Assembly (NCBI GenBank): GCA_902796225.1
Contig: CADBOO010000132.1
Span: 21,188-85,187 of the forward strand
Direction: 5' to 3'
DNA from: an uncultured Ruminococcus sp.
Lineage (GTDB): Bacteria; Bacillota; Clostridia; Oscillospirales; Acutalibacteraceae
DNA: 64,000 nucleotides
Shown: in pieces, positions 15,441-59,916 of the stretch
Position numbering within the stretch: the stretch's first letter is position 1
Layout of the letters: the number at the start of each line of letters is the position of its first letter
Translations under genes and position numbers: made by a program
Notes under the pieces: model-generated
Database searches by the model: none
What the model saw: only the letters and a program-made list of their open reading frames with translations
Told to the model about the DNA's origin: nothing

Positions 15441-16379
15441 TCAGATAGCGAGACCGGTGACGATACCCGTGGCATCGATTTCCTCGATTACGCAGTCAAA
15501 ATCAAGGATGATGACATAGTAGCGTTTCTCCTTATACATAGCATGAACGCTCTGGTCATCCTTGCGGATACGCATGTTGAGTGTACGAATGTCGACGAGG
15601 TTCTGCGGATCAGCCAGAAGGATAGTCCCGTCAGGCATATTCGGAACTTCGATGGTCGGGATCTTGAAAGGCGAATCATAGAAGCTATCCGGTACGATGC
15701 CGCCGCTGTTGACAGCCTTACCGAGCAGATATTCGTTCCAGTCAAGCAGACGAGTAGGAGACATCAGCCAGCGGAGTCCCGCAGTACGGTGCTTAGAAGG
15801 AAGCGATTTGAGAAGAGCGCTGAAAACGGTATAGTCGATATGACCGCCATAAGATGTGCTCTGCCCTGCATCCAGCAGATGACCGCCGGTTGTGATCTTC
15901 TTGATGAAGCCATCGTTGATCTTGAGGAATTCATAATCGGGATTGGAAGCAGAAACAGCTTCATCGCCGTTGATCTCAGAATCCTCAACATCGCAGGCAA
16001 CCTGATTCGTCATCAGACTCATGAGCTTCTGGCCGATCTTCTCGCCTTCCTTGTTCTCCTCAAAGAACTGCTCGGTGCATTCCCACGGAGCACGGACTCT
16101 GTGGGTCTGATAGTTAATACCGCCGAAGTTGACGCCGACACGGTAACCGTCATCGACACCCTCAGTGGTTTCGCGAATGATCCTCTTGTTGACTCCGATT
16201 CTGTCGATCTCGCCGCTCTTCTCAACATGGATCTCATGACGCATAGCCTGTGCGAGAGGAGTTGCCTCAAAGGTCTGCATATGAAATGCTTCTGCTTGCC
16301 ACGGACGCAGTCTGCCGTGAGAGATGGAACCGGAGTTGATATCTTTTTCAGTTACAATCTGAAAATTACTTCTTGACAT
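15441..16379 (-). CDS. Major capsid protein (XkdG-like)
   Basis: GRLRPWQA, INGD, FLKINDGFIK motifs; follows the protease gene. Confidence 0.9.
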   Translation of the reverse strand: MSRSNFQIVTEKDINSGSISHGRLRPWQAEAFHMQTFEATPLAQAMRHEIHVEKSGEIDRIGVNKRIIRETTEGVDDGYRVGVNFGGINYQTHRVRAPWECTEQFFEENKEGEKIGQKLMSLMTNQVACDVEDSEINGDEAVSASNPDYEFLKINDGFIKKITTGGHLLDAGQSTSYGGHIDYTVFSALLKSLPSKHRTAGLRWLMSPTRLLDWNEYLLGKAVNSGGIVPDSFYDSPFKIPTIEVPNMPDGTILLADPQNLVDIRTLNMRIRKDDQSVHAMYKEKRYYVIILDFDCVIEEIDATGIVTGLAI

Positions 16380-28540: not shown

Positions 28541-28900
28541 TTATACCTCCTCTCTTTCAATGACTGTAGGTGCATTTTCTATTGACGCTAATACAGCGGA
28601 TAAAGGTACATTGGTATCAGCTGTTCCAGCAGCGCTTTTAATGACAGCTATCAGCCTGTCAGCGTCAATCAACCTGCCGTGTGGTGTAGGGATTTCGGAA
28701 AGAGAATAATTTCTACCGAGCACAGATAAATGGATTGTTCCATCGTGGTTAAAGGATAAATCAAAGGGAATTTTTGCCGCTCCAAACTGTACATCTTGAC
28801 CTACTTTCCAATTCCTGATAGTCCAGAGCTTTAACGTCCCTTTATCTGTTTGCACTTCCGTTTGTTTCGGCATATCCATGCCATTAATTAGTAGGCTCAT
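28541..28900 (-). CDS. Hypothetical phage protein
   Basis: AAGGAGG RBS; MSLLINGMDMPK...PHGRLIDAD...APTVIE. Confidence 0.75.
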   Translation of the reverse strand: MSLLINGMDMPKQTEVQTDKGTLKLWTIRNWKVGQDVQFGAAKIPFDLSFNHDGTIHLSVLGRNYSLSEIPTPHGRLIDADRLIAVIKSAAGTADTNVPLSAVLASIENAPTVIEREEV

Positions 28901-28941
28901 TTTTATCCTCCTTTATCTCTTCAGAACCAACATATGATAGT

Positions 28942-29193
28942 TCATCTCTTTATCCTTTCCACATGGATATCGAACCGCTTGAGTTGGCGTGAGAACGGGT
29001 CTAAGCCTTCCATAGAAGTGCCTTTGTAATAGTCGCTGGGATCGATCTGTTCAAGAGCGTTCGTCAGGTTTTGATCGTTGCTTCTTCTTTCTCTCAACTC
29101 TTCGAGCCACAGCCTTAGCTGTTTATGTTCTTGCCCACAGGCTGAACAATTCTCTTTTTCTCTGCAATGCTCGATAGCTTCATCGAGTGTCAT
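28942..29193 (-). CDS. Fusion protein: small phage early domain plus a copy of the N-terminal segment of the GTA-like major capsid protein
   Basis: AGGAGG RBS; residues encoded by 28960-29070 match capsid residues encoded by 55543-55653 at 26/37, ungapped. Confidence 0.85.
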   Translation of the reverse strand: MTLDEAIEHCREKENCSACGQEHKQLRLWLEELRERRSNDQNLTNALEQIDPSDYYKGTSMEGLDPFSRQLKRFDIHVERIKR

Positions 29194-29722
29194 TGTTTAT
29201 CCTCCTATCTCGATTTGCTGACCTGAACATCATTAAGAGCATTTCATAAATAGGTCTGCTGCGATCTTCCCTATGTGCTTTTTTCACTACCTTTAGGCTA
29301 TCGCCGCCGGGAACCAAAACACCAACGTGCCACGGTATGTAAATAGGCTCTTCCTTATCGAGCAGTTTAATAGTATAATCATCCACTACAAGCGGTATGG
29401 GATGTCGCTGTGAGTCTTTGATCTTTTGATAAGTTTCTTCCGTCATCACATAGTAGTTAAAGTCGCCTATAAAGTTATGCCCGTTCTTCGACCTGAAATC
29501 TTCAATACAAGACTTCACTTCAAAACAATAGAAAGCGCCTTTTTCTATGCCTGATACTGTGTTGTTCATCGGCTTGAATTTCATATAATCAACCCTGATT
29601 TGATGGTCAGTACCATAATCAAAGGTTACCTCTCTCGCCCAGTATATCCGAGTGTCGCCGTTGGGATCGATGTAACTCTCTGTGAGTTCAGATAGTCTTT
29701 TTGTTATTTCTGATCGGCTCAT
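29180..29722 (-). CDS. PD-(D/E)xK nuclease-fold protein (MmcB-like)
   Basis: RVDYM...CFEVKSCIEDFRSKNG, NYYVM motifs. Confidence 0.7.
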   Translation of the reverse strand: MSRSEITKRLSELTESYIDPNGDTRIYWAREVTFDYGTDHQIRVDYMKFKPMNNTVSGIEKGAFYCFEVKSCIEDFRSKNGHNFIGDFNYYVMTEETYQKIKDSQRHPIPLVVDDYTIKLLDKEEPIYIPWHVGVLVPGGDSLKVVKKAHREDRSRPIYEMLLMMFRSANRDRRINNDTR

Positions 29723-29906
29723 ATGTAACCCTCCTATTCCAAGCCTTAATTGCGCTTTGTTTCGTGCTCCTGCTAATCATGGCACCGCAAGAATTACACA
29801 TTACTGTAGGTTTGTATTTGCCGCCGGAAAGCGGAACCATAACCGGTCCAATATATACCGCGTTTTTGCCACAGTGCGGACACGGTATCAACTCAGGTGT
29901 TTCCAT
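29688..29906 (-). CDS. Lar-family restriction alleviation protein
   Basis: LIPCPHCG...CNSCGA...AIKAWNRR; start at ATG 29906. Confidence 0.8.
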   Translation of the reverse strand: METPELIPCPHCGKNAVYIGPVMVPLSGGKYKPTVMCNSCGAMISRSTKQSAIKAWNRRVTYEPIRNNKKTI

Positions 29907-37311: not shown

Positions 37312-37960
37312 CGTCTTCCTCTTCCTCGTGAGCGTGCATATACACATACACGCTAGATTGCTTTGCGTTCTTATAGATGAAGTCGTTTGCCTGCTGGACA
37401 GACAGATGCGTCCATGCAGCTCGCTTCTCGTAAGGAAACTGACCCTCGACTTGCTTTTCTTTGATCTTCCTCTTGATCTCTTCCTCGTCGTGATTCGCCT
37501 CGATCAAAAACAGATCATAGTGCCAAGCTGTGACACCATTCAGATTGCCGGTGTCAGTCGCATAGATCATCTTATTCCCTGACGGGAAATGGATCTTGTA
37601 GCCCTGGTTAGGCACATCATGAACAAGTGGTACCGGAATGACCGTGCATAGCTTACCGTAGGTGTAGCTTGTCCCGTCATTAAGAATATCGATGTTCTTC
37701 GCCGGTACACCGGCGTCGATCAGCAGCGGCACCAACCATCTACCGCATCCAAAGCGCAGTGTCGGGCGCTCCCGGCTCAGTCTTGATATAGTTGACTGTC
37801 TGAAATGATCGCTATGTTTGTGAGTAAGCAGTACGATCTTCAGACCGGGCACATACGGCCACAGAGCGTTATAAGGAACGCCGCAGTCAATCAGGATTTT
37901 GTTATTGATAACTACGGCGTTGCCCTTTGAGCCGGTCGCGAGTATGTCGTACTCAATCAT
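37280..37960 (-). CDS. Metallo-beta-lactamase-fold hydrolase/nuclease
   Basis: TGSKGN, THKHSDH, HDV, YATDT, EANH. Confidence 0.88.
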   Translation of the reverse strand: MIEYDILATGSKGNAVVINNKILIDCGVPYNALWPYVPGLKIVLLTHKHSDHFRQSTISRLSRERPTLRFGCGRWLVPLLIDAGVPAKNIDILNDGTSYTYGKLCTVIPVPLVHDVPNQGYKIHFPSGNKMIYATDTGNLNGVTAWHYDLFLIEANHDEEEIKRKIKEKQVEGQFPYEKRAAWTHLSVQQANDFIYKNAKQSSVYVYMHAHEEEEDDADNSENTEV

Positions 37961-38876
37961 CGTCGAACAGATCGCCGTCGTCGTCATCCATCGGAATCTC
38001 GACCGCATCGGTGGAATCCGGATGATGGGCGACCTCGTTGATGAACTCTGCGTCGTTCATTTGCTCTCCTGTGGCTTCCTCGAATACGATCTCGCCTTTG
38101 GGAGATATATCACCGGTAGAGTAATCACGGATAAACGCGTTTTGCATCTCCACCGACATGACGCCCCATTTGCTGATCAACTGGCGAAGCATGGTCTTCT
38201 TCGCCATAGCGTCGAAGTCTTTGTACCAGAACGAGGAATACTTCCACATATCCTTGTCCGGCACGTCGCCGTTGAGGATCTTCTGATACACCTCTCTGGA
38301 AAACGCCTTACTGTACTTGTCCGCGTGCGAGAGCATTTGCTCCTTAGTCCAGTAAATAGCCTTGCGGAATCCGTTGGTATACTCGAACATGGCATAATAG
38401 CCAATGGTCGGCGCCGCTTCTCTCTCGTCGGCGTCACCGATCAGAGTGACGTCGATCTCCTCAGTCAGAGGATCGAACTTATTCAACTCGCCCTGCTTGA
38501 TCTCGAGGACGTTCAGCTTCTTATAGCAGCCGGAGCGGATGGCCAACTGAATGTAGCCCTTGTAGCCGAGAATAAACTGTGCGTTTGTAGTTCCTGCCCG
38601 GTTATTCTTGAACGGTACCAGATAATAGTGTCCGATCTGCGGCGAGTGGGAGAGCTTCAAGCTCTCACCCAACAGGGCGCCGGACACAATGGAACCGGCA
38701 TCGCACTCCTGCAGAGCGGGAGTAGTAGCAACCGCTGACGATATCGCGGCGATAAACCGCTTTGCAGTATCAGGATCTCCGAGCGTATTACGGATAAGAT
38801 TCTGATATGCAGGTGTTGATAACGCAACCGAGAACTTAGGCTTCTGCTGTTGCGGTGACCTTTGTAAACTTGCCAT
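37953..38876 (-). CDS. recT: RecT recombinase
   Basis: GHYYLVPF, QFILGYKGYIQLAIRSG, FDAMAKKTMLRQL. Confidence 0.92.
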   Translation of the reverse strand: MASLQRSPQQQKPKFSVALSTPAYQNLIRNTLGDPDTAKRFIAAISSAVATTPALQECDAGSIVSGALLGESLKLSHSPQIGHYYLVPFKNNRAGTTNAQFILGYKGYIQLAIRSGCYKKLNVLEIKQGELNKFDPLTEEIDVTLIGDADEREAAPTIGYYAMFEYTNGFRKAIYWTKEQMLSHADKYSKAFSREVYQKILNGDVPDKDMWKYSSFWYKDFDAMAKKTMLRQLISKWGVMSVEMQNAFIRDYSTGDISPKGEIVFEEATGEQMNDAEFINEVAHHPDSTDAVEIPMDDDDGDLFDDD

Positions 38877-40198: not shown

Positions 40199-40264
40199 TG
40201 TTTCACTTCCTTTCGTTTTGGTATGGAGATGGCGGGCGGCGGCGATTCCTCGCAAACCGCCCGC

Positions 40265-40364: not shown

Positions 40365-40430
40365 AGATGTGAGGGTGATATACCGCACCCTCGTCGGTTT
40401 GTCAGGAAATAAAAATGCAAAAGAAGTACG

Positions 40431-44586: not shown

Positions 44587-44808
44587 ATGACGGAAAACGG
44601 TATGCTCTTACGAAACACGGAAGAACTGACCGAAGAAGAGTGGAATAACCTTGACGATCTGCTCCGGTTCGGGAATGATCTGCTCGATGATTCAGAAAAG
44701 TCTGTAATGCTACAGACCTTGAAAAAGATAATTGCCGCTACGAATTATGAAGAAATTACGCTGCACGTTCTGCAAGCGTTCATTCAGCTACACCAGGAAA
44801 GGAGGTGA
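44587..44808 (+). CDS. Hypothetical protein
   Basis: AGGAG RBS before ATG 44587. Confidence 0.5.
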   Translation: MTENGMLLRNTEELTEEEWNNLDDLLRFGNDLLDDSEKSVMLQTLKKIIAATNYEEITLHVLQAFIQLHQERR

Positions 44809-44812
44809 AACT

Positions 44813-45964
44813 ATGCCCGCCTACAAGGATGAGGAAAGGGGTACATGGTATGTCAAATGCTACTATACCGACTATTACGGACGAAAGCAGCAGAAGAAAA
44901 AGCGCGGCTTCAAAACAAAGCGTGAAGCGAAGGCATGGGAAGACAATTTTCTCGCAAACGAGTCACGATTGCCGGAAACAATCTTCAAGGATGTGATCTC
45001 TCAATACCTGGATGATACAAAAGATAAAATCGCTCCATCGACTTTGACATACAAAAAACAAGTGATTGAAGTATATATCATGCCGGTGTTTGGTGAAATT
45101 GAGATTTGTAAAATAACGCCGGAAATGGTTCTGTCATGGCAAAAGGATCTAATGAAAACGCCATGCAGAAAAAGAAAGGCACAGAAACTAAGTCCTACGA
45201 CGGTAAACCATATCACCGCCCAGCTTTCGGCAATCTTCAACTACGCTGTAAAATACTATAATGTCTCGAAAAACCCTGTATCCATTATCGACAGATTGAA
45301 AGGCGAATCTAAGACAATGGATTTCTGGGAAGTCAATCAATTCAAGAGAGCCCTTACATGGATCTCAAATCCGGAAATGCACCTGATTTTTCAAATGCTG
45401 TTCTTCGGCGGCTTCCGGATCAGCGAGCTTCTGGCTCTCACGCCAGGTGATCTACAAAAAAATGAAAGGGCTGTTTTCATCAATAAAACATATAAGCTTG
45501 ATGATGGTAAATGGATCAAGGGTCCCCCTAAATCAAAGAATAGTACAAGATTGGTTGCACTTCCAGACTTTCTATGGGATGAATTAGAATCTTTTGTAAG
45601 ACGGCAATACCATCTTAATCAGAATATGGACATTTTTACTGTTTCGAGATCAACGATCAGAGCACGGCTCGAATATATTGCTGAACAAACAAGTCTACCG
45701 CGTATCAGAATACATGATCTACGGCATAGTCATGTATCGTATCTAATCAATTTGGGGTTTACAATATACGAAATTGCTGATAGAATAGGTGACACACCAA
45801 CTGTTGTCGAGCGCATTTATTCACACATGTATCAAAGTCGGAGGCTTGAAATTGCCGATCGGATTCAAAGAGAAAACTCAGAAAATAATGATATTAGTAC
45901 CAAATTAGTACCACAGCGACTTTTGAGATCTAAAGACTACCAGTATTTACCTAGAAAGTTCTGA
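44813..45964 (+). CDS. Tyrosine integrase
   Basis: AAGGAGG RBS; arm-binding N-terminus KKRGFKTKREA, GFRISELLAL, PKS, HDLRH, IYSH. Confidence 0.95.
   Translation: MPAYKDEERGTWYVKCYYTDYYGRKQQKKKRGFKTKREAKAWEDNFLANESRLPETIFKDVISQYLDDTKDKIAPSTLTYKKQVIEVYIMPVFGEIEICKITPEMVLSWQKDLMKTPCRKRKAQKLSPTTVNHITAQLSAIFNYAVKYYNVSKNPVSIIDRLKGESKTMDFWEVNQFKRALTWISNPEMHLIFQMLFFGGFRISELLALTPGDLQKNERAVFINKTYKLDDGKWIKGPPKSKNSTRLVALPDFLWDELESFVRRQYHLNQNMDIFTVSRSTIRARLEYIAEQTSLPRIRIHDLRHSHVSYLINLGFTIYEIADRIGDTPTVVERIYSHMYQSRRLEIADRIQRENSENNDISTKLVPQRLLRSKDYQYLPRKF
45893..45913 (+). repeat. ATTAGTACCA direct repeat, candidate integrase arm-type sites
   Basis: Two 10-bp copies at 11-bp spacing at the integrase 3' end. 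Confidence 0.6.
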
Positions 45965-46117
45965 ATATCTGAACAAATTGTGAATTTGATAAATTTTTTA
46001 CACAAGATATAGACAAATTGCGATTTTTGGTGTATATTATATGAGTTAATTAATACTATATTGAGGAAGTATGCAACCGCAAATCCTCGATACGGTAAAC
46101 AAAGGACGGTAATCAAA

Positions 46118-48820: not shown

Positions 48821-49285
48821 TCAGCGAAATACGATTGCCAGATACTGGCCGCCGTTTTCGTTCAGATTGAATCGCATTCCGTCCGACGCCGAACTCTGCT
48901 GACGGACGACAAAGCCGGTCGAGCTGACGCTCACTCCGCCGCTGCCGCCGCTGCCGTATACCGCCGTACCGGAATTGACGACCGCTGTCCCGCTGTCGAT
49001 CGCAGTGGGAGCAGCGTTCTTTTTATACACCATCACCATTTTCGGAGCAAAATCCGTCGTCAGCGCCCGGTTATCGACGCCGCTGCCGGAGTAGATCATC
49101 GTCGTATAGGGCGACAACGCCTTCTCCTTCTCCGCCGCCGTCAGATGCTTGGTCGTATCCGCGATATGTCCGCCGACGGTCGAGTCGATGATGTGGTTGT
49201 CCGATACAAAATCCGCGCGTTTCGGACGGTCGGACGCCGCCCAATCGCACAATCCCAGATGGGTCGTAAAACTGCTGGATGCCAT
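48821..49285 (-). CDS. Short tail fibre/tip protein
   Basis: TTHLGLCDW...DNHIID anchor, YSGSG...FAPKMVMV...LNENGGQY C-terminal domain. Confidence 0.7.
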   Translation of the reverse strand: MASSSFTTHLGLCDWAASDRPKRADFVSDNHIIDSTVGGHIADTTKHLTAAEKEKALSPYTTMIYSGSGVDNRALTTDFAPKMVMVYKKNAAPTAIDSGTAVVNSGTAVYGSGGSGGVSVSSTGFVVRQQSSASDGMRFNLNENGGQYLAIVFR

Positions 49286-49299
49286 TTTTCTTCCTTCCT

Positions 49300-49857
49300 T
49301 TATTCAAGAGAATCGATCTCGTCCCAGTCGAGGTCTTCACTGTCAAGCGCAGCAAAGGTCTTGTTCAGCGCGTCCAACTCGCTCCACATCAGCGTATTGA
49401 AAACCAGCTGGAATTCCAGATGCGCCGGAACGATTTTTGCGACTTCGCTTTTGATAAACGCTTGCTCTGCTTTTGTGTAATCTGTCTGCGCCACGATGTT
49501 CAGACGGTTGAGGGTCGGAAACTCCGAGATCACATATTCCAGCCCGAAGCTGTCGAGCGCCATGCGGATCCCGGCGGGGGTAAAATCCCCTTCGCCGAGA
49601 TTCATGCGGCTGAGCAGCCGTTCGCGGCGCTCTGCTGCAGTCAATGACGATTGCTCGGGGCCGAAGAGTTCTTCGTATTCTTTGAGACCTCTGTCCTGCG
49701 CCGTTGCGATGAAGCCCTCCGGGAGCATCTCGTCGATCTGCTGATACAGGCGTTCGAATTCATCTGCGTAAGCCCTCAGCTCCCGCCCGAGATTTCGCGC
49801 ATCCGATCGGTAGATCATCAGCGGGAGCAGCGCTTTTTTCATACTTTGCAGAACCAT
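49300..49857 (-). CDS. YmfQ/DUF2313 baseplate protein
   Basis: FIATA...GL..YE, ERRERL, IVPAHLE. Confidence 0.8.
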   Translation of the reverse strand: MVLQSMKKALLPLMIYRSDARNLGRELRAYADEFERLYQQIDEMLPEGFIATAQDRGLKEYEELFGPEQSSLTAAERRERLLSRMNLGEGDFTPAGIRMALDSFGLEYVISEFPTLNRLNIVAQTDYTKAEQAFIKSEVAKIVPAHLEFQLVFNTLMWSELDALNKTFAALDSEDLDWDEIDSLE

Positions 49858-49860
49858 TCT

Positions 49861-50922
49861 CTACACCTCTCTGACCACGATATTGTCGGGATATGCGATC
49901 TGTGCGTCAGAGATCGGGCAATCGGAGCCGTAGCTCTCCAGAAAGCGATAATCGCGCACGCCCTTGATGTGATAGATGACCTCGCCGACCTCGCTGAGCA
50001 GCAGATCTCTGCCGATACCGAGATCATCAATAAAGCGGGTCACCGCCTGTCGGACCTCATCAGCGACCGTGTCAAAATCGTAGCCGGGATCGACTTTCAG
50101 CCGGATATAGAGCGATATTCCGATCGGCTCCGGCTCAGCCGCCCTGACGTCAACATTCAGCTCTCTCGCCTGTGTCAGCAATGCCTGCACCTGTGCCATT
50201 TGGGTGTTGGACAGCGACATCCCGCCGTCGCCGATGACATAGACGTCGACCGTCCCTGCTCCTCTTGCACAACCGACGACCGACGCGGATGCAACGCCGC
50301 TGACTGACATTGCAAGGCGCTTGTAGTAAGCGGCATTGGCTCCGTTTGAAATATATCTGTAGCTGTCCTGTACGCGGGCGCGCAGATCGTCGTCGCTTTC
50401 CGTATCCGCGCCGCCGCTGTACGGCGCGCCGTTCGTGACGCTGCCGATCCCCGTTATCGGTGTGACGATGATCGTGACGGTACCGCCGTTGACATTGTAG
50501 TCTGCGCCTGCCTGCGCGGCGGTAACATACGCCAGCGCACGTGTATCCTCCGCTCCCAGAACAACGTCGGAATCCGTCACGAACCGATGCATATTGGTAT
50601 ACGCACACACCACTGTACCGGCTGGGATCAGGATCGATCCATGCGTTTCCTCGGAAGGGTAAAAGTATACCGAACCGTGCGCCTTTGCCGCGGGTCTGCG
50701 CGTTATACCGCGTTCTGCGGCGTGCATATCCAAGTATTCGCCGACGGCTGTCGACGGGAACATCTGCCGCAGTACGTATTCCGCATAGGCGCGTTCCTTG
50801 AAGATCTCGGCGGCAAGCACCCTGAGCCGGATCATCACATCCGATCCTTCCTGCGGTTCAAAGCCCGCATAGCCTATGTAACTTTGTTTCATTCTGTCAA
50901 GAATGGTTTCATATGATTCCAG
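49861..50922 (-). CDS. Baseplate J/gp47 protein
   Basis: TAVGEYLDMHA, GGADTESDDDLRARV, RGAGTVDV; likely CTG start at 50922 after GGAGGTG. Confidence 0.9.
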   Translation of the reverse strand: MESYETILDRMKQSYIGYAGFEPQEGSDVMIRLRVLAAEIFKERAYAEYVLRQMFPSTAVGEYLDMHAAERGITRRPAAKAHGSVYFYPSEETHGSILIPAGTVVCAYTNMHRFVTDSDVVLGAEDTRALAYVTAAQAGADYNVNGGTVTIIVTPITGIGSVTNGAPYSGGADTESDDDLRARVQDSYRYISNGANAAYYKRLAMSVSGVASASVVGCARGAGTVDVYVIGDGGMSLSNTQMAQVQALLTQARELNVDVRAAEPEPIGISLYIRLKVDPGYDFDTVADEVRQAVTRFIDDLGIGRDLLLSEVGEVIYHIKGVRDYRFLESYGSDCPISDAQIAYPDNIVVREV

Positions 50923-51259
50923 AAATATCCACCTCCGTCACGGCAGATCTGCCGCGAAAAGTCACTTTTATTCCGGCGACCGCGTTTACGGCGTCGTAGG
51001 AAATAACCTGAGCGTCTACCCCGCCGATATCCGCAACGCCCTCTTTGACGAGCATATCCAGCCGATCGGCGGCATTGTCCGCATCGGGAGAAAACGCGTT
51101 GTAATCCACCCCTAAGCTGCGGTCATACTGAAAGTCGCCGCGCTTGACCAGCGCGACCGTCCGCACCAGCTGTACCGCCTCGTCGAATCCGCCGATCATC
51201 TCAAAATCCCCGTTGAGCCGCAAAGCGATATCACCGTTATTGATCCTGACGTCCATCAC
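50909..51259 (-). CDS. Baseplate wedge protein (gp46/DUF2634-like)
   Basis: RGDFQYDRSLG motif; slot between spike and baseplate J. Confidence 0.7.
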   Translation of the reverse strand: MMDVRINNGDIALRLNGDFEMIGGFDEAVQLVRTVALVKRGDFQYDRSLGVDYNAFSPDADNAADRLDMLVKEGVADIGGVDAQVISYDAVNAVAGIKVTFRGRSAVTEVDISGII

Positions 51260-51594
51260 TGTACCGCCCTTCCGTTGATCAGCACGCTGCCGTCGTTTTT
51301 CAACACTATGGAAGCGCCTCCCGCCGAGTACAGCATCAGCTCGCCGGGCTGCAGCTCGTCACATGCTTCGCCGAGTACCCCGAGGCAGATATTTCCCGCC
51401 TCGGTCGGCAGCACCACCGATCTGCTTCCGACAGCCGGCTTGTATGCGATACCGTACGGCACCGCGACCGGCAGCGACATATGCTCGTTCGTCGCGCTGA
51501 CCGCCACCTTATCGCCTCCTGCCGCACGCACTACGCCGACCGAGGCGCTGTCCTTCGAAAACGAGTTCTCCGTTACATATCTCGATATCCACAT
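51256..51594 (-). CDS. Baseplate spike protein (Mu gp45-like)
   Basis: PYGIAYKP, LQPGELMLYSAGGASIVLKNDG. Confidence 0.8.
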   Translation of the reverse strand: MWISRYVTENSFSKDSASVGVVRAAGGDKVAVSATNEHMSLPVAVPYGIAYKPAVGSRSVVLPTEAGNICLGVLGEACDELQPGELMLYSAGGASIVLKNDGSVLINGRAVQ

Positions 51595-52529
51595 CCGTTA
51601 TTCCTCCTTTTGAGTATCAGGGTCGACGTCCCGCCGCTGCTGTCCAGCCGATAGCTGACGCCGCTGACATAAAGCCCGCCTATCTTTGCGAGCCGGCGGT
51701 TTTTGACAACGGCGTCGCTGCCCATGACCTGCGCCAAAAATCCCGGGCATTTCAGCCGGATGCTGAAAGAAGCGTCGGCGCCGTTTTTGATCATCGTATC
51801 CACGCAGGTCATCGGCGTGGATGAAAGCACGGCGTTCACATATCGTTCCCTGCAAATGCCGCGGCGGACAGCGTCGTCGTTCTCAATCCTGTAGACATAC
51901 CCGTCCTCGTCATTGATCTTGACGTTCACGCGCGAGAGTTCTTCGCACCGCTTGATTGTTTCGCTCAGGTGCGTATAAACGATCCCGTCGCCGGTATCGG
52001 AAAAGACCGCCTCCCCCGAGGATCTGATCCCCTTCATCCACAGCACGCCGTCGGCGGTCACGCGCGGGGTCGAAGAATAACACGCCGTGCAGAAATTCTT
52101 CAGCACAGCCCACTGTGACATGCCTTTGTTGACCTGCTGTTCGCCGTAATAGACCGCGTCGTCATTCTCGCCCCTGACGATCCCGTAACGCTGCACATGG
52201 CGCTCGAAGATCAGCGCCGCCGAGGGATGATCATAACACTCCGGCATCGCCTCGTTATCGAGCAGACGCGCTGCGAGCGAACGGGCGGAGATCTTCAAAA
52301 AGCGTCCCTGTTCACCGATGATATGCTCCTGTTCATCCGCCACGCCGACAAAGATCACCCGATCGCCGTCAAATACCCTGACGTCGACCGTCTCGCCGAC
52401 GTCCTCATATGCAAAAACCGCACAGCAATCGTCTGCGGGGACGTCCTCGTCCATGCGGATGCTGAGCTTCAGCGGGCGGGTGAGGAGATGCGTTTTCCCC
52501 TGTGTATCCGTCAACTCAAAGCTCAGCAT
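51573..52529 (-). CDS. Baseplate hub protein (Mu gpP/XkdQ-like)
   Basis: IFVGVADE, ARSLAARLLDNE motifs; synteny. Confidence 0.75.
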   Translation of the reverse strand: MLSFELTDTQGKTHLLTRPLKLSIRMDEDVPADDCCAVFAYEDVGETVDVRVFDGDRVIFVGVADEQEHIIGEQGRFLKISARSLAARLLDNEAMPECYDHPSAALIFERHVQRYGIVRGENDDAVYYGEQQVNKGMSQWAVLKNFCTACYSSTPRVTADGVLWMKGIRSSGEAVFSDTGDGIVYTHLSETIKRCEELSRVNVKINDEDGYVYRIENDDAVRRGICRERYVNAVLSSTPMTCVDTMIKNGADASFSIRLKCPGFLAQVMGSDAVVKNRRLAKIGGLYVSGVSYRLDSSGGTSTLILKRRNNGCGYRDM

Positions 52530-53044
52530 AAACGCACCCTCTCCCCTTCCTCAAGGCAGTCGATATACCTGATCTGCGGATTCAGCCGCACCAGTGTTTC
52601 AATCGGAACGCCTGTGATATAGCTGATATCCCACAGTGATTCGCCGACAACGATGGCGTCATAGTATTCGCGCGGGATGTTATCCTTTGCCGCCGGCTGT
52701 GCTTCGATGAAAACAAAGCGATATCCGAGCACATCTTCTTTCGGCTGGGCGGTCATTTTCAGCTCTTTGAGATACGCATGCATCGCGGGCATCTTCGGCA
52801 GTGACAGCAGTCCTTCCTTTTCGTCGTCAAGCAGTTTCTGCAAACGCTCAAACTGCGCGATACAATCCGTACCGTACAGCTCGCCCTCGCCGGTGATCCG
52901 GCGCAGCTTGCTGCCGAGATGCGCGCTCTGCGGCTCACAGCAGGGAGAGGTCAGCTCGCGGATATTGCCCGCGCCCTCGATCTTCAGCGTTGCGGGATTA
53001 TGATGAAAGGTGTACCCGCAAAATCGCATGGGGGCATTTTTCAT
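52523..53044 (-). CDS. LysM-domain tube initiator protein
   Basis: HNPATL, GEGELYG, C-terminal LysM GESLWDIS...LNPQI. Confidence 0.8.
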   Translation of the reverse strand: MKNAPMRFCGYTFHHNPATLKIEGAGNIRELTSPCCEPQSAHLGSKLRRITGEGELYGTDCIAQFERLQKLLDDEKEGLLSLPKMPAMHAYLKELKMTAQPKEDVLGYRFVFIEAQPAAKDNIPREYYDAIVVGESLWDISYITGVPIETLVRLNPQIRYIDCLEEGERVRLC

Positions 53045-53169
53045 ATATGCTTTGCCTCCTCTTCTTCGCTGAACGCCTTGTTATAGCGGCGTGCGTCGCG
53101 TTCCATAAACGCGAACGCCTCCTCGTCATAGAATTCGCGTTCTTCGCTTTCATAGATCTCATCCTGCAT
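53041..53169 (-). CDS. 42-aa acidic mini-protein in the tape-measure position (not in ORF track)
   Basis: MQDEIYESEEREFYDEEAFAFMERDARRYNKAFSEEEEAKHI*; overlaps the upstream stop and has an ATGA overlap with the next start. Confidence 0.75.
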   Translation of the reverse strand: MQDEIYESEEREFYDEEAFAFMERDARRYNKAFSEEEEAKHI

Positions 53170-53542
53170 TTTCGCGCACCTGCCTTCTCATGCTTTTCGC
53201 CGTGATCGTAAAGACGTCGACCACGTTTTTTCCTTCCTTGATGCTGCGTTCCTGTCCGGTGACCGTGCAGCCCTCATAGCTGTACACGATCTCTCCGTCG
53301 ACCGCGCTCAGCGTGAATCCGTTCTCCCCGATGATCTCATAGCGGAACAGCGACAATACGCTCAATCTGATCTCTGCGCTGATCCTGCCGTTGACGATCT
53401 CAAACGCCTCGCCGCTGAGATACTCGCGGATCGGATAGCTCTCGCAAGCGGTTTTCGCGACAAAATCCGTCACGCCGAACAGCTGTTCTTCGCCGATATA
53501 CAGCTCGATATCCCGACTGCGGGTGATGCGTAATTCATTCAT
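53159..53542 (-). CDS. Tail tube-like protein
   Basis: 127 aa beta-strand pattern (DIELYI...YSYEGC...FTITA); synteny. Confidence 0.6.
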   Translation of the reverse strand: MNELRITRSRDIELYIGEEQLFGVTDFVAKTACESYPIREYLSGEAFEIVNGRISAEIRLSVLSLFRYEIIGENGFTLSAVDGEIVYSYEGCTVTGQERSIKEGKNVVDVFTITAKSMRRQVRENAG

Positions 53543-53985
53543 CGCACAGCCTCCCCGGTCAGGATGCGGCGCATCGTCACGCGCAGATCGCGATAGATCG
53601 TGCGGGCGGTGTTATCATAGGCAACCCCGCCCAGCGACATCTCGGCGATCTCCCGATCAACGTCGCAGACGCCGACCGCGTCAAACAGCTGGGCGCTCAT
53701 CCTGAGCAGCGCTGACGCCGAAGTGTTGCGCGGCGCATAGACCCTGAGCGTCAGGTCGATCTCATACAAAGCGCCTTTCAGTCCCGTGCCGACGGTATCT
53801 CCGATGAATACCTGCGATCGCTTGACGGACGTCTGATCAACGGCGACCGTGTACTTGTCAATGGGATTCGGCACATCTCTCGGAGGATACGCCGTCATGA
53901 ACACCATATCCGATACCGCGGTACGCTGACGCACGCGCTTGATCAGCTCGTCTATATTATTATCAATCAATGACGTCATAGTCAT
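53539..53985 (-). CDS. Probable tail terminator/neck protein
   Basis: Synteny; LTLRVYAP motif. Confidence 0.55.
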   Translation of the reverse strand: MTMTSLIDNNIDELIKRVRQRTAVSDMVFMTAYPPRDVPNPIDKYTVAVDQTSVKRSQVFIGDTVGTGLKGALYEIDLTLRVYAPRNTSASALLRMSAQLFDAVGVCDVDREIAEMSLGGVAYDNTARTIYRDLRVTMRRILTGEAVR

Positions 53986-54325
53986 CCTCCTTCAATTCTT
54001 TTTTCGGCGAAAGTATCGCCCAGACATAGACCCCGTCGTCGCCGACGACGAATTCTTCGGATCTGACAACGGTATACGCGCTGCCTTTGCAAGTGATCAC
54101 TGTGTTGTCGCCGAAGGAAAATCGGCGGGAGAGATCGCCGATATACAGCTGATAGGAATTGTCATAGTATCCGACAGGGATCTTCTTGTCGTAGAGATAC
54201 AGGCGATGCTGCCGCCGAAGCGGCTGGACAAAGGCCTTGGTGACCTCTGTCCTGCCGTTTGTGCGGATCGCGACCGTATTGCCGTATCGTCTGAGTATTC
54301 TGCGAAAGCTTTGTGATGCGGTCAT
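53963..54325 (-). CDS. Probable head closure protein
   Basis: LRRYGNTV, AFVQPL, LYIG, YVWAIL. Confidence 0.6.
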   Translation of the reverse strand: MTASQSFRRILRRYGNTVAIRTNGRTEVTKAFVQPLRRQHRLYLYDKKIPVGYYDNSYQLYIGDLSRRFSFGDNTVITCKGSAYTVVRSEEFVVGDDGVYVWAILSPKKELKEDDYDVID

Positions 54326-54684
54326 ATTCTCACCGCCCTGAATGAAAAATCGTCGTCGATCGCAACGATACCGGCGATAGACGCCTTCTCGTCTTCCCAG
54401 AGTTTTTCGGCGCTCGTACCGCCGTCGTCATCCATGATCAGCTGAACGTCGCCCGCCTTGAAACTGCTGACGCCCGTATCTCTGCCGAGCCTGCTGATGC
54501 GAAGGTAAGCATACACCGCACAGGCATGAACGACTCGGCGGTGTTCCGGACCGGTCAGTTCACGGCTGATCCTCTCCTCAAAATACTCTTTGCATTCGAT
54601 GATGATCGGCAGATAGCGGGAGATCTCTTTTCTCTCATAACCCGACACCAGAGTGAAGCGTTCAATGATCTCGTTCAAGCTCAT
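54322..54684 (-). CDS. Probable head-tail connector
   Basis: Helical; SSFKAGDV motif; follows the capsid gene. Confidence 0.65.
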   Translation of the reverse strand: MSLNEIIERFTLVSGYERKEISRYLPIIIECKEYFEERISRELTGPEHRRVVHACAVYAYLRISRLGRDTGVSSFKAGDVQLIMDDDGGTSAEKLWEDEKASIAGIVAIDDDFSFRAVRI

Positions 54685-54699
54685 AGTGCCACGCCTCCT

Positions 54700-55707
54700 T
54701 TAGTAGCTCAGCTTTTTGGAAGCGCCGGTAAAGATCTTTGCAAAGCCCGCGATCGAGCTGATCGTCGCGCGCTCAAGCTGACGGTCGATGAGCTTGTCGT
54801 AATCGGTCACGACGTCGCCCGCAACGACCATCTCCAGCGCGCAGTTCTTATCCAGACCGATGACATTGGCGCCGCTGACAGCGGTGGTATGGATGAGATT
54901 TGCGCCGAGCGGCGTGATCATCTTGCCGCTTGCGTGGAAGTTCAGACCCGCGACAGCGTCCTTCATCTCGGTGATGGAGAGCAGCTTGCTCATCGCCGCT
55001 GTCGGCGCAAGGATGGTGTTCAGCTCATAGGGAGCCAGCGCGCCCCACAGAGAGATCAGATCGGCGTAGCTGAGGCTGCCGGATGTCGCCGCGTTAACGG
55101 TCGAGCAGGCGTTGCTGTTACCGTCGCCGTTGATGATCACGTCGACCGCGTCTTTGAGCTGAGCGCGGGCGATGTACGCGCCGATCTGCTTGAGGGTAAC
55201 GGTGAAGAGATCGATACGCTGGAAGCGCAGCGCCTCGTACGATGACACCAGCATTCTGCCGCGCTTATGCAGCTTGACCAGATTATCGTTGGTTTTGATT
55301 TCAGTGGTCGGGATGAATGCGCCCTCGGCGACCTTCATCAGGCTCTTGTCATCCTCTCCGGGAGTCGAGGTGATCGAGCGATAATCCATGCCGTCGATCC
55401 TGGTGACGGTTGCGACGACGTCATTCAGGACGTCAGCCTCTTCCATGCCTGTGTGGACGGCGCGGCTGACGTATTCGGGGAACAGCGCCGCCGAATTGGA
55501 GGTCGCGAAGAACTTCTCAACAGTATCGCTGGCTCTGCCGCTGACTTTGATGTCAAAACGCTTGAGCTGACGGGAAAACGCGTCGAGTCCCTCGAGCGCG
55601 GTACCCTTGTACTCCTCGCTGGGATCCAGCGCCTCCAGCACCTCGGTCAGCGACTTGCCGCTCTGGTACATTCCCTTTTCCAGATTGATGGTTTCAAAAT
55701 TTGCCAT
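54700..55707 (-). CDS. Major capsid protein (HK97 fold)
   Basis: LFPEYV, VAEGAFIP, KLHKRGR...SYEALR, INGDG. Confidence 0.9.
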   Translation of the reverse strand: MANFETINLEKGMYQSGKSLTEVLEALDPSEEYKGTALEGLDAFSRQLKRFDIKVSGRASDTVEKFFATSNSAALFPEYVSRAVHTGMEEADVLNDVVATVTRIDGMDYRSITSTPGEDDKSLMKVAEGAFIPTTEIKTNDNLVKLHKRGRMLVSSYEALRFQRIDLFTVTLKQIGAYIARAQLKDAVDVIINGDGNSNACSTVNAATSGSLSYADLISLWGALAPYELNTILAPTAAMSKLLSITEMKDAVAGLNFHASGKMITPLGANLIHTTAVSGANVIGLDKNCALEMVVAGDVVTDYDKLIDRQLERATISSIAGFAKIFTGASKKLSY

Positions 55708-55719
55708 AGTATTCCCTCC

Positions 55720-56049
55720 TTAAAGAATGAAGCCGATGGTGGCGTCGTCTACATAAATGACAAGGCGGTCGACGCCCGATTCGGCGGTCTTGACAGCGCC
55801 GGTCGCCGCGACGAGTTTCTGATAACCGACGTTGACGGTACCGCTCTTTGCAGCCTCGGTATAGCCTGCGATCTGTACGGCGGCATAGCCGTCGCGGGTG
55901 CTGACGCAGACGCCGATGAATGCGTCGTTTGCGGACGCTTTTGCGACCTTCGCCGACGCGCTCATTTTGACAAGGTCGCCCTTGCTGAGCGTACCGGTAT
56001 ACTCAAAGGTCAGCACATTTTCATTAAAGCCTGAAAACTTGATATTCAT
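55720..56049 (-). CDS. Capsid decoration/cement protein
   Basis: KGDLVKM...FIGV...AAVQIAG; GGAGGT RBS before ATG 56049. Confidence 0.7.
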   Translation of the reverse strand: MNIKFSGFNENVLTFEYTGTLSKGDLVKMSASAKVAKASANDAFIGVCVSTRDGYAAVQIAGYTEAAKSGTVNVGYQKLVAATGAVKTAESGVDRLVIYVDDATIGFIL

Positions 56050-56060
56050 AGTTACCTCCG

Positions 56061-57014
56061 TTAAATTCTGAATTCGGTATTGCCGAAGGTCTGTTCGGCA
56101 GTCATGCGGCAAAGCTGAGGCGCCGCCGGTTTTGCGGGCTGTTTGCCGAGCGCCTTGATCAGCGCCTGCAGCTCGCCCACATCGAGCTTTTCGATAATGC
56201 TTTTGGATGTATTGAAATCCACCTCAATCTTGAGATCGGCGATCTGACGTCTGAGCTTTTCGCACAGCTCGGCGCGGTACGCGTCGGCATACTCCGCCTT
56301 TTTCTCCAGCGCTTTGACATATTCTCTGAGCGAATCCATATCGCGCTTCGAAAGGAAGATATCCTTCTCGCATTCCAAAAGCGTTTTGATCGTTTTCATA
56401 TCCTTCTCCTTGATTCCTGTTTTGACCACGCCGGCGGCTCGCTGGGCGGGAACCGCGACAAAGCTGAATTCATACGCGTCGGTCGGCTCCGATAATTCAC
56501 CGCAGCACTTCTCGCCGTTATACTCGCTGCCCTTGACATGATTGCACAGCGGCGAACGCATGTCGTTGCGGCAGATCGAACAGACGGTTTTGCCGACACT
56601 GCAGCCGACGGATACCTCTTTGACGATGCCCGCCTCGATCTGATCGATCAGCTCGGCGTTCGCCTGCGTGCGGCGGATATACGCCCTTGCGGTCAGGCGA
56701 AACAATTCGTCGCCCAACGCGGTCGTTTTGCCCTCGACATTCTCGACCTTACACGAGATGATCCGCGCCTTCTGATTCCTGGCGGTCGGATCGTGGTCGA
56801 TGATGCCGGTCTTGCCGACGAACAGTTTTTCGAGCGCGAACAGCGATTCGACCGTAAAGCGTTCGTTGTCCCTGTCGAGATCGTTATCACACAATACGAC
56901 CGTGAACAGATACACCTCGTCCGCGCTCAGCTCACGGCGCGAATAGGTGTTGACCAGCGCCATTTCTTCAGCAAGCGAATCCCCGGCGCTTTTGATGACC
57001 ATTCCGTTTTTCAT
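56061..57014 (-). CDS. Prohead protease/scaffold
   Basis: DRDNERF, DH, KEVSVGC, CSIC...CNH, EFSFVAVPAQ, helical C-terminus. Confidence 0.8.
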   Translation of the reverse strand: MKNGMVIKSAGDSLAEEMALVNTYSRRELSADEVYLFTVVLCDNDLDRDNERFTVESLFALEKLFVGKTGIIDHDPTARNQKARIISCKVENVEGKTTALGDELFRLTARAYIRRTQANAELIDQIEAGIVKEVSVGCSVGKTVCSICRNDMRSPLCNHVKGSEYNGEKCCGELSEPTDAYEFSFVAVPAQRAAGVVKTGIKEKDMKTIKTLLECEKDIFLSKRDMDSLREYVKALEKKAEYADAYRAELCEKLRRQIADLKIEVDFNTSKSIIEKLDVGELQALIKALGKQPAKPAAPQLCRMTAEQTFGNTEFRI

Positions 57015-58156
57015 TCCTTCACCTCCGTGAGCGTCGCTTCGATCTGGGCGGCACGCGCGTTATCCAGCCGCGCCGACGCCAGTTCCGTTTCATCCTGTAA
57101 GCTGATATTGTCCCACTCGATCCCGACCTGCGGGTTGAGTCCCGCACAGCTCAGATAGATCCGCGCGATCCTGAGCAGCACCGGTGATAACAGTGAACGG
57201 TAATAATCCAGCTCCGACGTAAGGATATCCGCCTGCTGAGAGGACATCCTCTCGGTCGTCGACCACGACAGTCCCAGCAAAAACGGCGGTACGGACAGCT
57301 TTGCGACGATCTGCTCGAGGATATGCCTGATCGGAACGTCGCAGTCGAGGATCTGGTTATCCGCGCCGATCGCCCTGACGGAAACGTCGCCGACCGAAAT
57401 AAAGTCGCACACCCTGCCTTTATCGCGCATGGCGCGGCCCCACTCCTGAGCGATCTCCTCCACGCGCTGTTTCGAATTGATCGCAGAAGTCCCTGTCGGC
57501 GGGCGATAGGTCACCGCGAAGCGGACGTTGCCGGCGCGCTCGAAATTCTGTCCTACGCTGTCGAAGATCTTCAGCAGGATCTCGCTGACGAACGGCAGAC
57601 CGCCGAGGATCGAGTTGCCCTTGAGCGAACCGGGATCGGGGTTGAGCAGGCTCACACAGATCAGCTCGGGATGCTCGACCTCTCGTGAGAGACCGATCCC
57701 CTTCGCACAGATGCGCACATCCAGCGGATTGCTGCCGGTCTTGAGCTCGACAGCGTCCGCCGGGGCGTTATACAGCGCCGCGACCTCTGTGCCGTCCGAG
57801 GAAAGCACAATTTCGCCCACCGCCGTTCCGTAGGTGAGCAGCTGATCAAAATAGCAGAAGATGAACTCCCTGATCCCCGTTCCCACACCGCCGACACGGA
57901 CGTTGTCAAAAAAGTGATCCAGCGATCTTTGCGCGGCGTCATCCGCGCATTTCACGTAAAAATCCCCCAGCAGGCGGATCAGCTTGCCGATCGCGGCGTC
58001 GATCACCGGCACCGCTTTTCTCAGTTCACGATACAGCCTGTATTGCGTCGGATCCGCACTTTTGTACAGCGACGGGAGAATACTTCCCCTGTCGGCTGCG
58101 GCACAGGTCTGCACCGCGGGAGTACCGCTCTCTTTTTTAGCGGAAAACAGTTTCAA
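57011..58156 (-). CDS. Portal protein
   Basis: VPVIDAAI, GTAVGEIV, GNSIL, PPFLLG; lies after the terminase; probable TTG start at 58156. Confidence 0.85.
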   Translation of the reverse strand: MKLFSAKKESGTPAVQTCAAADRGSILPSLYKSADPTQYRLYRELRKAVPVIDAAIGKLIRLLGDFYVKCADDAAQRSLDHFFDNVRVGGVGTGIREFIFCYFDQLLTYGTAVGEIVLSSDGTEVAALYNAPADAVELKTGSNPLDVRICAKGIGLSREVEHPELICVSLLNPDPGSLKGNSILGGLPFVSEILLKIFDSVGQNFERAGNVRFAVTYRPPTGTSAINSKQRVEEIAQEWGRAMRDKGRVCDFISVGDVSVRAIGADNQILDCDVPIRHILEQIVAKLSVPPFLLGLSWSTTERMSSQQADILTSELDYYRSLLSPVLLRIARIYLSCAGLNPQVGIEWDNISLQDETELASARLDNARAAQIEATLTEVKE

Positions 58157-58160
58157 ATAC

Positions 58161-59444
58161 TTACCTCCCTTGTGCGGCAGAATCATTCCGCCGCTCTACG
58201 ATTGCACAGCAAAAGCTGCTGTCAGCCTTTGTGATATAGCTGACAAAATACCGTATGTCGTCCATGGCGTGGTCGTCCCTCTTGATGACGGTATCCGAAG
58301 GCTTGTCCTCGTCCCAGCGATAGAGCGAAAACTCGCGGATCGCGTCGCTACAGTTCTCGCAAATGACGACTTCTTTGCGCATCAGCGCCTGATAGGTTTT
58401 GCGGATGCCGTCCAGCACGTTGTTGTCCGCCCTCACTGCCGCAAAACGTCCGTGACGTTCGATAACCTCGATAAAGCTGGCGGCGCTGGGGTCGACGATC
58501 ACCGTCCCGACGTCCAGCGTACCGACAAGGTTTTCGAGCGCCGTATAGTGCTCCTCATCGGTACGCGATTTTCCCTCTCTGCGCGCATCATAGTAGTCCT
58601 CTGCGATCCGATACCAGACCTCGCCGATCCTGCCCCAGAGTCCCAGCGAAGTCGGATTTACCGTGCCGTAATCGCAGGAGACACAGTATTCCTCAAAGCT
58701 GACCTTCGGAACAGGTACGAACATACTGCTGTCATCCATAAACGGATAGACAGCGCCCGAAACACTCACCCATTCGCCCTCGACAAAACGCTTATAGAAC
58801 GCGCCGGAATACAGCTTTTCATAGCGTCCCAGCATTTTTTGCGAGAGCGACGGATTGTCTTTCATCGAGAAGTGGATATACACGGCGTTTTTTTCATTCC
58901 TGCGGCATATCCACTCTCTGTAGAACCAGTGAGAAGGGTATTCGGGGTTACAGTTGAAGAAGAACCGCGATCCCTGCACCGAGCATCGCGCGAGCGCCTG
59001 TTCGACGAATGAACGCGGCATCAGCGCAACCTCGTCAAACAACACGCCCGACAGCGTGATGCCCTGCACCAGCGCGGCGCTGCCCTCATCCTTACCCGAA
59101 AACAGGTAAAAGTAATTCTCGTGCCCGTGAAATCCGATGACGAGCCGATTGCGCGAAAGGTTGTCCTCCACGCTGAAGCCCATCTCTTTCAGGCACGGCA
59201 GAAGCGGCACGATCACGTTGCGCCGTAAGGCGCCGATGGTTTTTCCGCACAGGCCGAGAGAGGCTTTTTGAAAGCTCAGCATCGCCCACATCACAAACGA
59301 CAGCGACAGCGAAAAGGTCTTGCCCGAACGGACAGCCCCGTCGCAGATCACCGCGTCGTGATGCTCGTATCCCGAGCCGTCGGCCCACCAAAAAAGCGCT
59401 TGCAGCTGCTTTTGAGAAAACGGTTTATACTCCATCGTCGTCAC
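58161..59444 (-). CDS. Terminase large subunit (PBSX type)
   Basis: GAVRSGKT, LFDEVA, NCNP, CDYG, DPSA, DHAMDDIRY; all motifs intact. Confidence 0.95.
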   Translation of the reverse strand: MTTMEYKPFSQKQLQALFWWADGSGYEHHDAVICDGAVRSGKTFSLSLSFVMWAMLSFQKASLGLCGKTIGALRRNVIVPLLPCLKEMGFSVEDNLSRNRLVIGFHGHENYFYLFSGKDEGSAALVQGITLSGVLFDEVALMPRSFVEQALARCSVQGSRFFFNCNPEYPSHWFYREWICRRNEKNAVYIHFSMKDNPSLSQKMLGRYEKLYSGAFYKRFVEGEWVSVSGAVYPFMDDSSMFVPVPKVSFEEYCVSCDYGTVNPTSLGLWGRIGEVWYRIAEDYYDARREGKSRTDEEHYTALENLVGTLDVGTVIVDPSAASFIEVIERHGRFAAVRADNNVLDGIRKTYQALMRKEVVICENCSDAIREFSLYRWDEDKPSDTVIKRDDHAMDDIRYFVSYITKADSSFCCAIVERRNDSAAQGR

Positions 59445-59916
59445 CCGCCGGTATAACGGATCGACCCAGCGCCTGTGCCGAAAGCCGCATCGCTTCGATC
59501 AGTCCGCCGGAAGAATTTAATTCTTCTGAAGAATTAAGAAGCTCGTTCAGCTTGTCCGCCGCCTTCACGCGGTCAAAGAACTTGATCTCCATGCTCTTGT
59601 CCTTTGTCCGCTTGATTTCCGCAACGGACGACAGATCCAGCATCTCCAGTTCCTCGTCGGTCGGATCCTCGTGATACAACAGCTTGAGCGCGTCACAGGG
59701 GTTCGAGAGCGCCGTCCGATACAATCCGCACATCGCCGTGTGGCGGTATACTGCGCGCAGCGCCTCGGCATTGCGTCCGATTTCAGCGGCAATATCGGCG
59801 CGGCACACCAGCCGCTGCCATTTCTTTGCCGATTTGATTCCTGCTTCGCGCGCCGCACGCGCAGGATCTCCGCAGATCGCCGTCAGACGGCAGAATTCTT
59901 TTTCTTTTGGTTTCAT
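59425..59916 (-). CDS. Terminase small subunit
   Basis: KEKEFC...AAREAG start, EIKFFDRVKAADKL; GAAAGGAG RBS. Confidence 0.8.
   Translation of the reverse strand: MKPKEKEFCRLTAICGDPARAAREAGIKSAKKWQRLVCRADIAAEIGRNAEALRAVYRHTAMCGLYRTALSNPCDALKLLYHEDPTDEELEMLDLSSVAEIKRTKDKSMEIKFFDRVKAADKLNELLNSSEELNSSGGLIEAMRLSAQALGRSVIPAGDDDGV

Follow-up and report, generated by a model that had tools for sequence, protein, structure and literature searches.

Assembly of HK97-type heads is guided by a helical N-terminal domain of the capsid protein, which the protease then removes (PMC5052747). Judged from the accessible parts of the papers cited here, the closest known system to the locus described below is the SaPI protein Ccm, with the direction reversed. 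Ccm of SaPIbov5 resembles the present case in being a homologue of another element's HK97-type capsid, in its helical delta-like N-terminal region and in its position outside the head module (PMC5052747). Ccm interferes with capsid assembly of the other element (PMC5052747), and a corresponding interference may occur here. However, Ccm is a distant (19%) full-length homologue that is borne by a satellite, acts against the helper phage and is associated with small satellite capsids (PMC5052747), whereas in the phages described here the copies of the host's chromosomal capsid are nearly identical or only fragments, with direction and target reversed. Rcm/CpmB of SaPIs (PMC12409344) and TcaP of PLE (PMC10945586) are small and act as competitors where capsid and scaffold meet, as the captured parts might do. 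Unlike these parts, Rcm/CpmB and TcaP mimic or replace scaffolds, are satellite-encoded and are not copied from the capsid of their target. If our inference holds, the captured parts work like Ccm, Rcm or TcaP, yet they stand outside those families because they sit in the wrong element, are fragmentary and are copied from a host gene. The anti-DSR2 phage protein DSAD1 also resembles a virion component and is used against a host system (PMC10981675). Unlike DSAD1, the module studied here has its sequence taken directly from a gene of the host. DSAD1 reportedly acts on an immune sensor through structural mimicry.

On the host side, FpGTA of Faecalibacterium is likewise a host-fixed head and packaging operon without replication genes in gut Clostridia, and GTA-like packaging is described in Ruminococcaceae and Oscillospiraceae, where the loci are mostly not identified (PMC12946183). 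The FpGTA capsid is labelled as N4-gp56 family (supplement file 4), and a second operon houses the baseplate and lysis genes of FpGTA (PMC12946183), unlike the host operon here, which has a PF25209/phrog_3922 capsid and holds head and baseplate genes together. NCBIfam gave only a sub-threshold HK97 match for the host capsid and no N4-gp56 match. Set apart by capsid label and layout, the host operon is not FpGTA as the accessible part of PMC12946183 presents it; that part contains no report of phage capture of FpGTA. The operon resembles PBSX of Bacillus subtilis in its PBSX-family terminase (TIGR01547), its domestication and its lack of an integrase; unlike PBSX, it contains no recognised sheath, tape measure or lysis genes. 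Phage-borne PBSX fragments were not met in our searches. Searches of the literature within reach, from which subscription papers are largely missing, turned up no report of phages capturing GTA genes, and the supplements of 10.64898/2026.07.08.737213 might show such clusters.

The host operon, the prophage and the fusion ORF

The window, the whole 64,000-nt stretch of Ruminococcus DNA that was analysed, contains the host operon and a prophage that encodes a small fusion ORF. The features of the host operon are as follows.

48821..59916, minus strand: host head-plus-baseplate operon, terS to baseplate, approximately 11 kb, host-fixed
54700..55707, minus strand: host major capsid protein, HK97 fold, PF25209, phrog_3922
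55543..55653, minus strand: capsid residues 19-55, the counterpart of the fusion-ORF module by ungapped alignment
56061..57014, minus strand: host prohead protease-scaffold-like protein, phrog_16951
58161..59444, minus strand: host large terminase, PBSX family (TIGR01547, above cut-off)

The features of the prophage are as follows.

15441..16379, minus strand: the prophage's own capsid gene, phrog_1623, dissimilar to that of the host
28942..29193, minus strand: 83-aa fusion ORF, a helical phage module joined to the host-capsid N-terminal module; six alleles, also on contigs of other studies
28960..29070, minus strand: 37-codon module of the fusion ORF, homologous to capsid residues 19-55 by ungapped alignment
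29083..29193, minus strand: N-half carrier module of the fusion ORF, phrog_33451 (E 2e-12)
29201..29206, minus strand: ribosome-binding site AGGAGG, 7 nt 5' of the fusion-ORF ATG
37953..38876, minus strand: RecT-like recombinase
44732..45964, plus strand: integrase

Of the same-genus genomes 32 of 36 hold the host capsid, and of the same-family genomes 225 of 400, usually as one full-length copy, and the gene order of the operon is conserved across relatives. Its host-fixed, single-copy head and packaging genes and the absence of integrase and replication genes are as in a GTA, and the operon product is a putative GTA-like particle. The operon can decay: one small low-GC genome has a frameshifted host capsid (L346/L347; G462:C1:685019-685172), and the reading of this genome as having two separate matches was rejected in favour of one frameshifted capsid. 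The host capsid is predicted to have a helical N-terminal domain (approximately residues 1-75) ahead of the HK97 core. AlphaFold places helices within residues 3-73 (pLDDT 83-98), the Pfam core starts at residue 66, and Foldseek matches the protein to HK97 folds; the helical region predicted N-terminal to the core is a trait of the HK97 delta type. The protease-scaffold-like protein is a candidate partner of the captured module.

The prophage comprises an integrase, RecT, its own terminase and protease, and a dissimilar capsid. One end lies approximately 2.9 kb from the host operon (region 44732-48821) and the other just past mfd on the same contig (C132); no attachment-site repeat was found for it. 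The fusion ORF sits among small genes, with the replication module on one side and late genes on the other. As the sequence-only reading had held, the prophage's own capsid gene is distant (12.6 kb) and dissimilar; tblastn of this capsid matched neither the fusion ORF nor the host capsid. The same reading had placed the ORF in an anti-defence neighbourhood, for which the basis is one Lar-family gene (29688-29951), two ORFs upstream of the fusion ORF, and one N6-methylase. The RecT-like protein probably brings about capture at microhomologies and shuffling.

Several side observations were made around the ORF. The 36 nt at the start of a 119-aa gene (28866-28901) match many unrelated contigs from several runs (up to 8 per run), like a recombination joint common to phage accessory genes. 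ARAGORN finds a 97-nt tRNA-Glu(CTC) in the prophage early region, 40255-40427 (C132:61618-61714 region). Ahead of the terminase (24745-26115 and 22490-24748), the translations read like a sodium:solute symporter, a ParB protein and a PAPS reductase. Left of the window, C132:12691-14644 holds a reverse-transcriptase-like ORF and an Avd-like neighbour adjoining a tail-fibre gene, and these labels, also read from translations, suggest a diversity-generating retroelement.

The start of the fusion ORF overlaps the end of an upstream 180-aa gene. Its residues 42-78 align without gaps with capsid residues 19-55, and 26 of the 37 residues are identical, whereas the second-best ungapped offset gives 12 matches. 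The identical residues are encoded by the same codon in 9 cases and by different codons in 17; nucleotide identity is 72/111 nt, and identity per codon position is 27, 34 and 11 of 37, with third positions saturated. Our recount agrees with the identity and codon counts first given, and the in-frame fusion behind a small helical phage domain and the AGGAGG site are also as first described. The match is significant within the same genome (tblastn E 1.5e-13), against capsids among 1.84 billion proteins (phmmer E 5e-9) and against phrog_3922 (E 2e-8). Like Ccm, the fusion ORF is homologous to the major capsid of the putative target element; unlike Ccm, it has the N-module only rather than a full HK97 fold, and it lies in a full prophage rather than a satellite. 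None of 366 capsid copies exceeds 79/111 nt identity to the module and none of 278 capsid variants exceeds 28/37 aa, so that no recent donor is seen, in line with the earlier view that this is not a recent DNA copy of this allele. Synonymous saturation against this host allele is not enough to demonstrate that selection followed capture, because the capsids of other species are equally saturated.

Logan contigs cross the fusion junction in 4 of 8 other runs (X2, X3, X5 and X6; four studies), and the fusion is therefore not an assembly artefact. In these contigs, the upstream gene is constant while the downstream neighbour varies. The six protein alleles are too similar to each other for dN/dS over the module itself; in allele X6, codons 1-37 differ by 7 synonymous and no amino-acid-changing substitutions. 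The non-synonymous changes of X6 are K72R and those close to the junction. Elsewhere in phages, the phrog_33451 module occurs alone (40-51 aa) or joined to unrelated tails. A second N-half copy in the same genome (87% nt over 126 nt) has a different 150-aa tail and lies at a contig end, with phage-like genes nearby (G000, C59:32344-32916). The model of the fusion ORF, whose alignment was built from capsid fragments and is hence biased toward capsid, has helices in the module at ORF residues 43-50, 53-56 and 66-73 (pLDDT near 90), and the module is predicted to take the same three-helix fold as within the capsid. No solved structure matched the fusion ORF by sequence, and the fold search with its model gave Z scores under 5, too low to be informative.

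Head parts in other proteins and in phage lineages

The capsid N-module is also found in non-capsid proteins. Among the best 150 of 241 phmmer matches and the best 120 of 1468 profile matches, at least six further non-capsid architectures hold the module, and with the fusion ORF at least seven are present in at least 14 clusters at 90%. The further architectures, of presumed phage origin, are as follows.

63-aa protein
double-HTH fusion
family of 69-76-aa basic proteins (F4), with a 384-aa extension variant
54-66-aa family
152-164-aa fusion, whose partner is also found alone
98-aa fusion

The carriers are rare, with 1-6 members per cluster, and in the 36, 400 and 400 relatives searched a carrier was found in this genome only (G000). 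Viral scans, a GTDB pattern scan, genome searches and a metagenome scan (25 of 64 parts) for carriers with DNA context returned just capsids or the N-half, and the best 120 of 1010 matches in a short-protein profile search are all truncated capsids. Three short-frame matches considered as real short carriers were rejected, as they are located at contig ends.

With one representative per architecture, 8 of 91 capsid-invariant positions are changed in the carriers, compared to 92 of 164 variable positions, a comparison biased by the fact that carriers were found by similarity. In the basic family F4, the 26-residue core is 22-26/26 identical while in distant pairs the N-flanks agree at 6-13 of about 20 residues. 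A 34-column tree requires two to three origins and clusters the fusion ORF with four other architectures (94/80, unsettled). Of the 7 architectures, 5 have proline at capsid position 43; of the 278 capsid variants, 4 do. The idea that Pro66 is absent from all capsids was rejected, because four GTDB capsids have it. The sequence-only reading had proposed that the phage captured a piece of the host's domesticated capsid. The family origin is supported; judged from the tree grouping (94/80, not starred), the module probably came to the fusion ORF by way of an older pool of non-capsid carriers rather than directly from a host.

The capture extends beyond the module. The whole capsid, its first 140 codons, the protease domain and the C-half of the terminase have also been captured, a pattern that exceeds the earlier proposal. 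Among 67 viral loci found with the capsid fragment, a redundant set in which many come from a single data set, 24 hold the host capsid gene without its operon neighbours, and 16 of these 24 have at least 2.5 kb on both sides. In the matched portal scan used as a control, 0 of 29 loci are orphan. The host capsid, either complete or cut down to the first 140 codons, lies among accessory genes away from the operon in six phage lineages.

(a) 104-114-kb temperate gut phage with its own terminase, portal, tape measure and integrase: full-length host capsid, 92-99.7% identical
(b) RecT-encoding phage (L053:9947-10423, L060-L064, L066): exactly the first 140 capsid codons
(c) L008: old capsid copy
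(d) L291, a temperate phage: host-type orphan capsid plus its own phrog_10 capsid
(e) L319/L322: host-type capsid outside the operon
(f) L406: host-type capsid at a contig edge

In lineage (a) (L009, L010, L023, L025, L030, L032, L035, L037, L044, L047 and L049; around 9947-10987), the capsid lies among small accessory ORFs, and an 11-residue internal duplication is common to some copies. The insert of lineage (b) lies inside a small phage gene, with microhomology at both ends. In lineage (d), the protease of the phage's own head module is phrog_16951, the same family as that of the host operon (L291:16273-17070). Every truncated capsid copy seen retains the N-domain (140 codons, 179 codons or the module only). 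Two further candidates for orphan capsids were dropped: L247, in which the phage's own capsid is a distant family member, and L250, a chance match.

Whole-record searches with 11-15 kb of the host operon found the capsid, the protease domain and the terminase C-half only, except in two hybrids. The captures are domain-sized, in frame and downstream of phage ribosome sites, and the captured protease domain, the N-terminal one of the host protein, lacks the scaffold tail. A single phage lineage of related hosts has taken up the protease domain or the terminase C-half in addition to the capsid. The two pieces alternate in one slot behind a phage ribosome site and after a DHH phosphoesterase (L023:8363-8953; L044:8008-8577; L047:7221-8678; L444:5160-5405); depending on the record, this slot contains the protease domain of the host, a degenerate copy of the protease, a fusion of DHH and protease, or the terminase C-half. 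The L044 protease lacks His74 and Ser135, which are invariant in 57 host sequences and presumed catalytic. The terminase C-half is captured in two records of a phage lineage of related hosts, where the pieces run into contig ends. Integration of the large phage in host terL was rejected as the origin of this piece, which lies behind a phage RBS in an accessory slot far from the integrase. Among 19 records picked by the phage's own putative capsid, many of them fragments, 4 hold the whole host capsid, 1 a capsid edge and 1 a hybrid, the protease domain is present in 5 and the terminase half in 2; capsid and protease domain occur together in several phage records. Three of seven near-complete records of lineage (a) and its relatives lack any host piece, two of them being distant relatives. 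The hybrids, L022 and L029 (G842 and G820), run from a phage accessory region through the capsid gene into the rest of the host operon, and they may be recombinants that would remove the front half of the operon, or assembly chimeras.

Constraint after capture and the competing readings

The 13 phage copies of lineage (a) carry 41 private non-synonymous and 42 synonymous changes, compared to 4 and 61 in the host operon copies (n = 20, two of which were later found to be hybrid records; p 3e-9). Residues 1-68 of the young full-length copies have few changes of either kind (3N:3S) and show no signal of differential selection. Constraint on these young copies is relaxed and their frames are mostly retained, with L012 frameshifted downstream of the N-domain; the copies themselves are lost in some cases. 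Old captures keep the N-module while the remainder diverges: in L008, identity to hosts is 80% for the N-domain and 40-44% for the body, below the range of 399 comparable host pairs (minimum 46%, median 71%). The proposed protein-level conservation of the module is thus supported across carriers and old captures, and its recurrence in phages by the further architectures and the six lineages; the one-off recent neutral capture that the sequence-only reading had raised against itself is not what we find. Overall, the sequences point to real and recurrent capture, probably under selection.

The homology, the domain boundary, the recurrence in architectures and lineages, the conservation and the gene position are direct observations, and a poisoning of host head assembly is the reading that we prefer for them. 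We give roughly even odds that, while the phage grows, the fusion ORF serves as a competitive decoy and jams the assembly of the putative GTA-like particle, and hold it about as probable as its negation that the captured parts in general are competitive or dominant-negative poisons of host head assembly and packaging. The phage accessory gene would join a promiscuous helical carrier to the N-terminal module of a domesticated HK97-type capsid, and the capsid N-domain would be a delta-like assembly handle that touches the protease-scaffold or adjacent subunits. Made ahead of the phage late genes, as we suppose, the free module, surplus capsid, scaffold-less protease and ATPase-less terminase half could separately interfere with head assembly and packaging, by titration or as poisons. 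The motive might be to spare replicating phage DNA, which would be cut and mis-packaged by a host terminase that has no sequence preference; alternatively, particle release would kill the cell early, and capture would delay host-driven lysis.

This jamming is favoured by the N-domain as the common denominator of all capsid captures, and by the other captured parts being separable domains of one head pathway. Recurrence across module-only architectures, orphan-capsid loci and six lineages, the selectivity for capsid, protease and terminase pieces over the portal, and the domain-sized, in-frame form of captures behind phage ribosome sites also count for it, as do the retention of the N-module in L008, F4 and the carriers and the synonymous-only codons 1-37 of X6. 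Ccm is a precedent for a capsid homologue blocking another element's capsid (PMC5052747, accessible part). Against it count the rarity of the carriers, the relaxed young copies, the L012 frameshift and the three records without any piece. In addition, a wild-type full-length capsid is not obviously dominant negative, and the 2.9 kb between prophage and operon could have favoured capture by proximity.

Among the known triggers of immunity are capsid, prohead protease and terminase. The captured parts could instead be decoys that occupy a host sensor or lysis trigger for one of these proteins without activating it, shielding the phage's structural proteins. TIR capsid sensing (PMC11312562), DSAD1 mimicry (PMC10981675) and the immune-like control of GTA lysis in Caulobacter (PMC13236601), each in the accessible part of its source, are in keeping with such decoys, which would account for the sufficiency of a wild-type full-length capsid and would suit the Lar-family gene upstream. 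We nevertheless consider this unlikely, since the captures come from three distinct proteins of the operon, for which a single assembly pathway is the simpler explanation.

Unlikely, too, is a near-neutral process in which phage recombinases recurrently insert host DNA at microhomologies and in-frame pieces linger and then decay. The microhomology flanking the 140-codon insert of the L053 group, where RecT is encoded as it is in this prophage, fits such a process, as do the relaxed constraint, the frameshift and the patchy presence in the large-phage lineage, the rarity of each fusion and the two hybrid records linking phage DNA to the operon via the capsid gene. It does not readily explain the strong bias to the capsid and head-processing domains, the long retention of the N-module while body and flanks diverge, or a ratio of 41:42 that is far from the approximately 3:1 expected without selection, although unsampled host polymorphism inflates the synonymous count.

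The module might also have become a generic helical binding or oligomerisation domain that is shuffled among phage proteins, with the link to the operon gone. Its unrelated fusion partners, the double-HTH regulator among them, the clustering of five architectures in the tree and the frequent Pro43 are in keeping with such a domain. The positions retained are, however, the capsid-invariant ones, and fresh near-identical captures of the same capsid gene are still arising, so that we regard this reading as quite improbable. HK97 capsid and protease can assemble without other genes, and with both parts co-occurring in several records, the module could tag phage proteins into host particles or the pair could form phage-serving shells, but this is the most doubtful reading, as no shell can come from captures limited to the module, to 140 codons or to the terminase half, the L044 protease lacks its presumed catalytic residues and some records hold one part alone.

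Implications for GTA-like elements

Coming back to the jamming of host head assembly, the sequences tentatively suggest, at somewhat less than even probability, that the operon, domesticated in gut Oscillospirales, restricts phages through DNA chopping, mis-packaging or early lysis, and that phages counter it with stolen parts as dominant-negatives in an ongoing arms race. A practical consequence of the captures is that a capsid gene on a viral contig of this group is not necessarily the phage's own. The captured parts (83 aa and smaller) are candidate inhibitors of a widespread DNA-packaging system that is hard to reach genetically, and with a cultivable gut host and the temperate phage that infects it, a defence role of the GTA-like element can be put to a direct test. 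Why bacteria retain costly GTA-like elements is a long-standing open question. Repeated phage capture of head-assembly and packaging domains is indirect evidence that the element is active in infection and costly to the phage. If the arms-race reading is true, the captured parts would be the first class of phage anti-GTA factors, and they would provide a defensive reason for keeping GTA-like elements.
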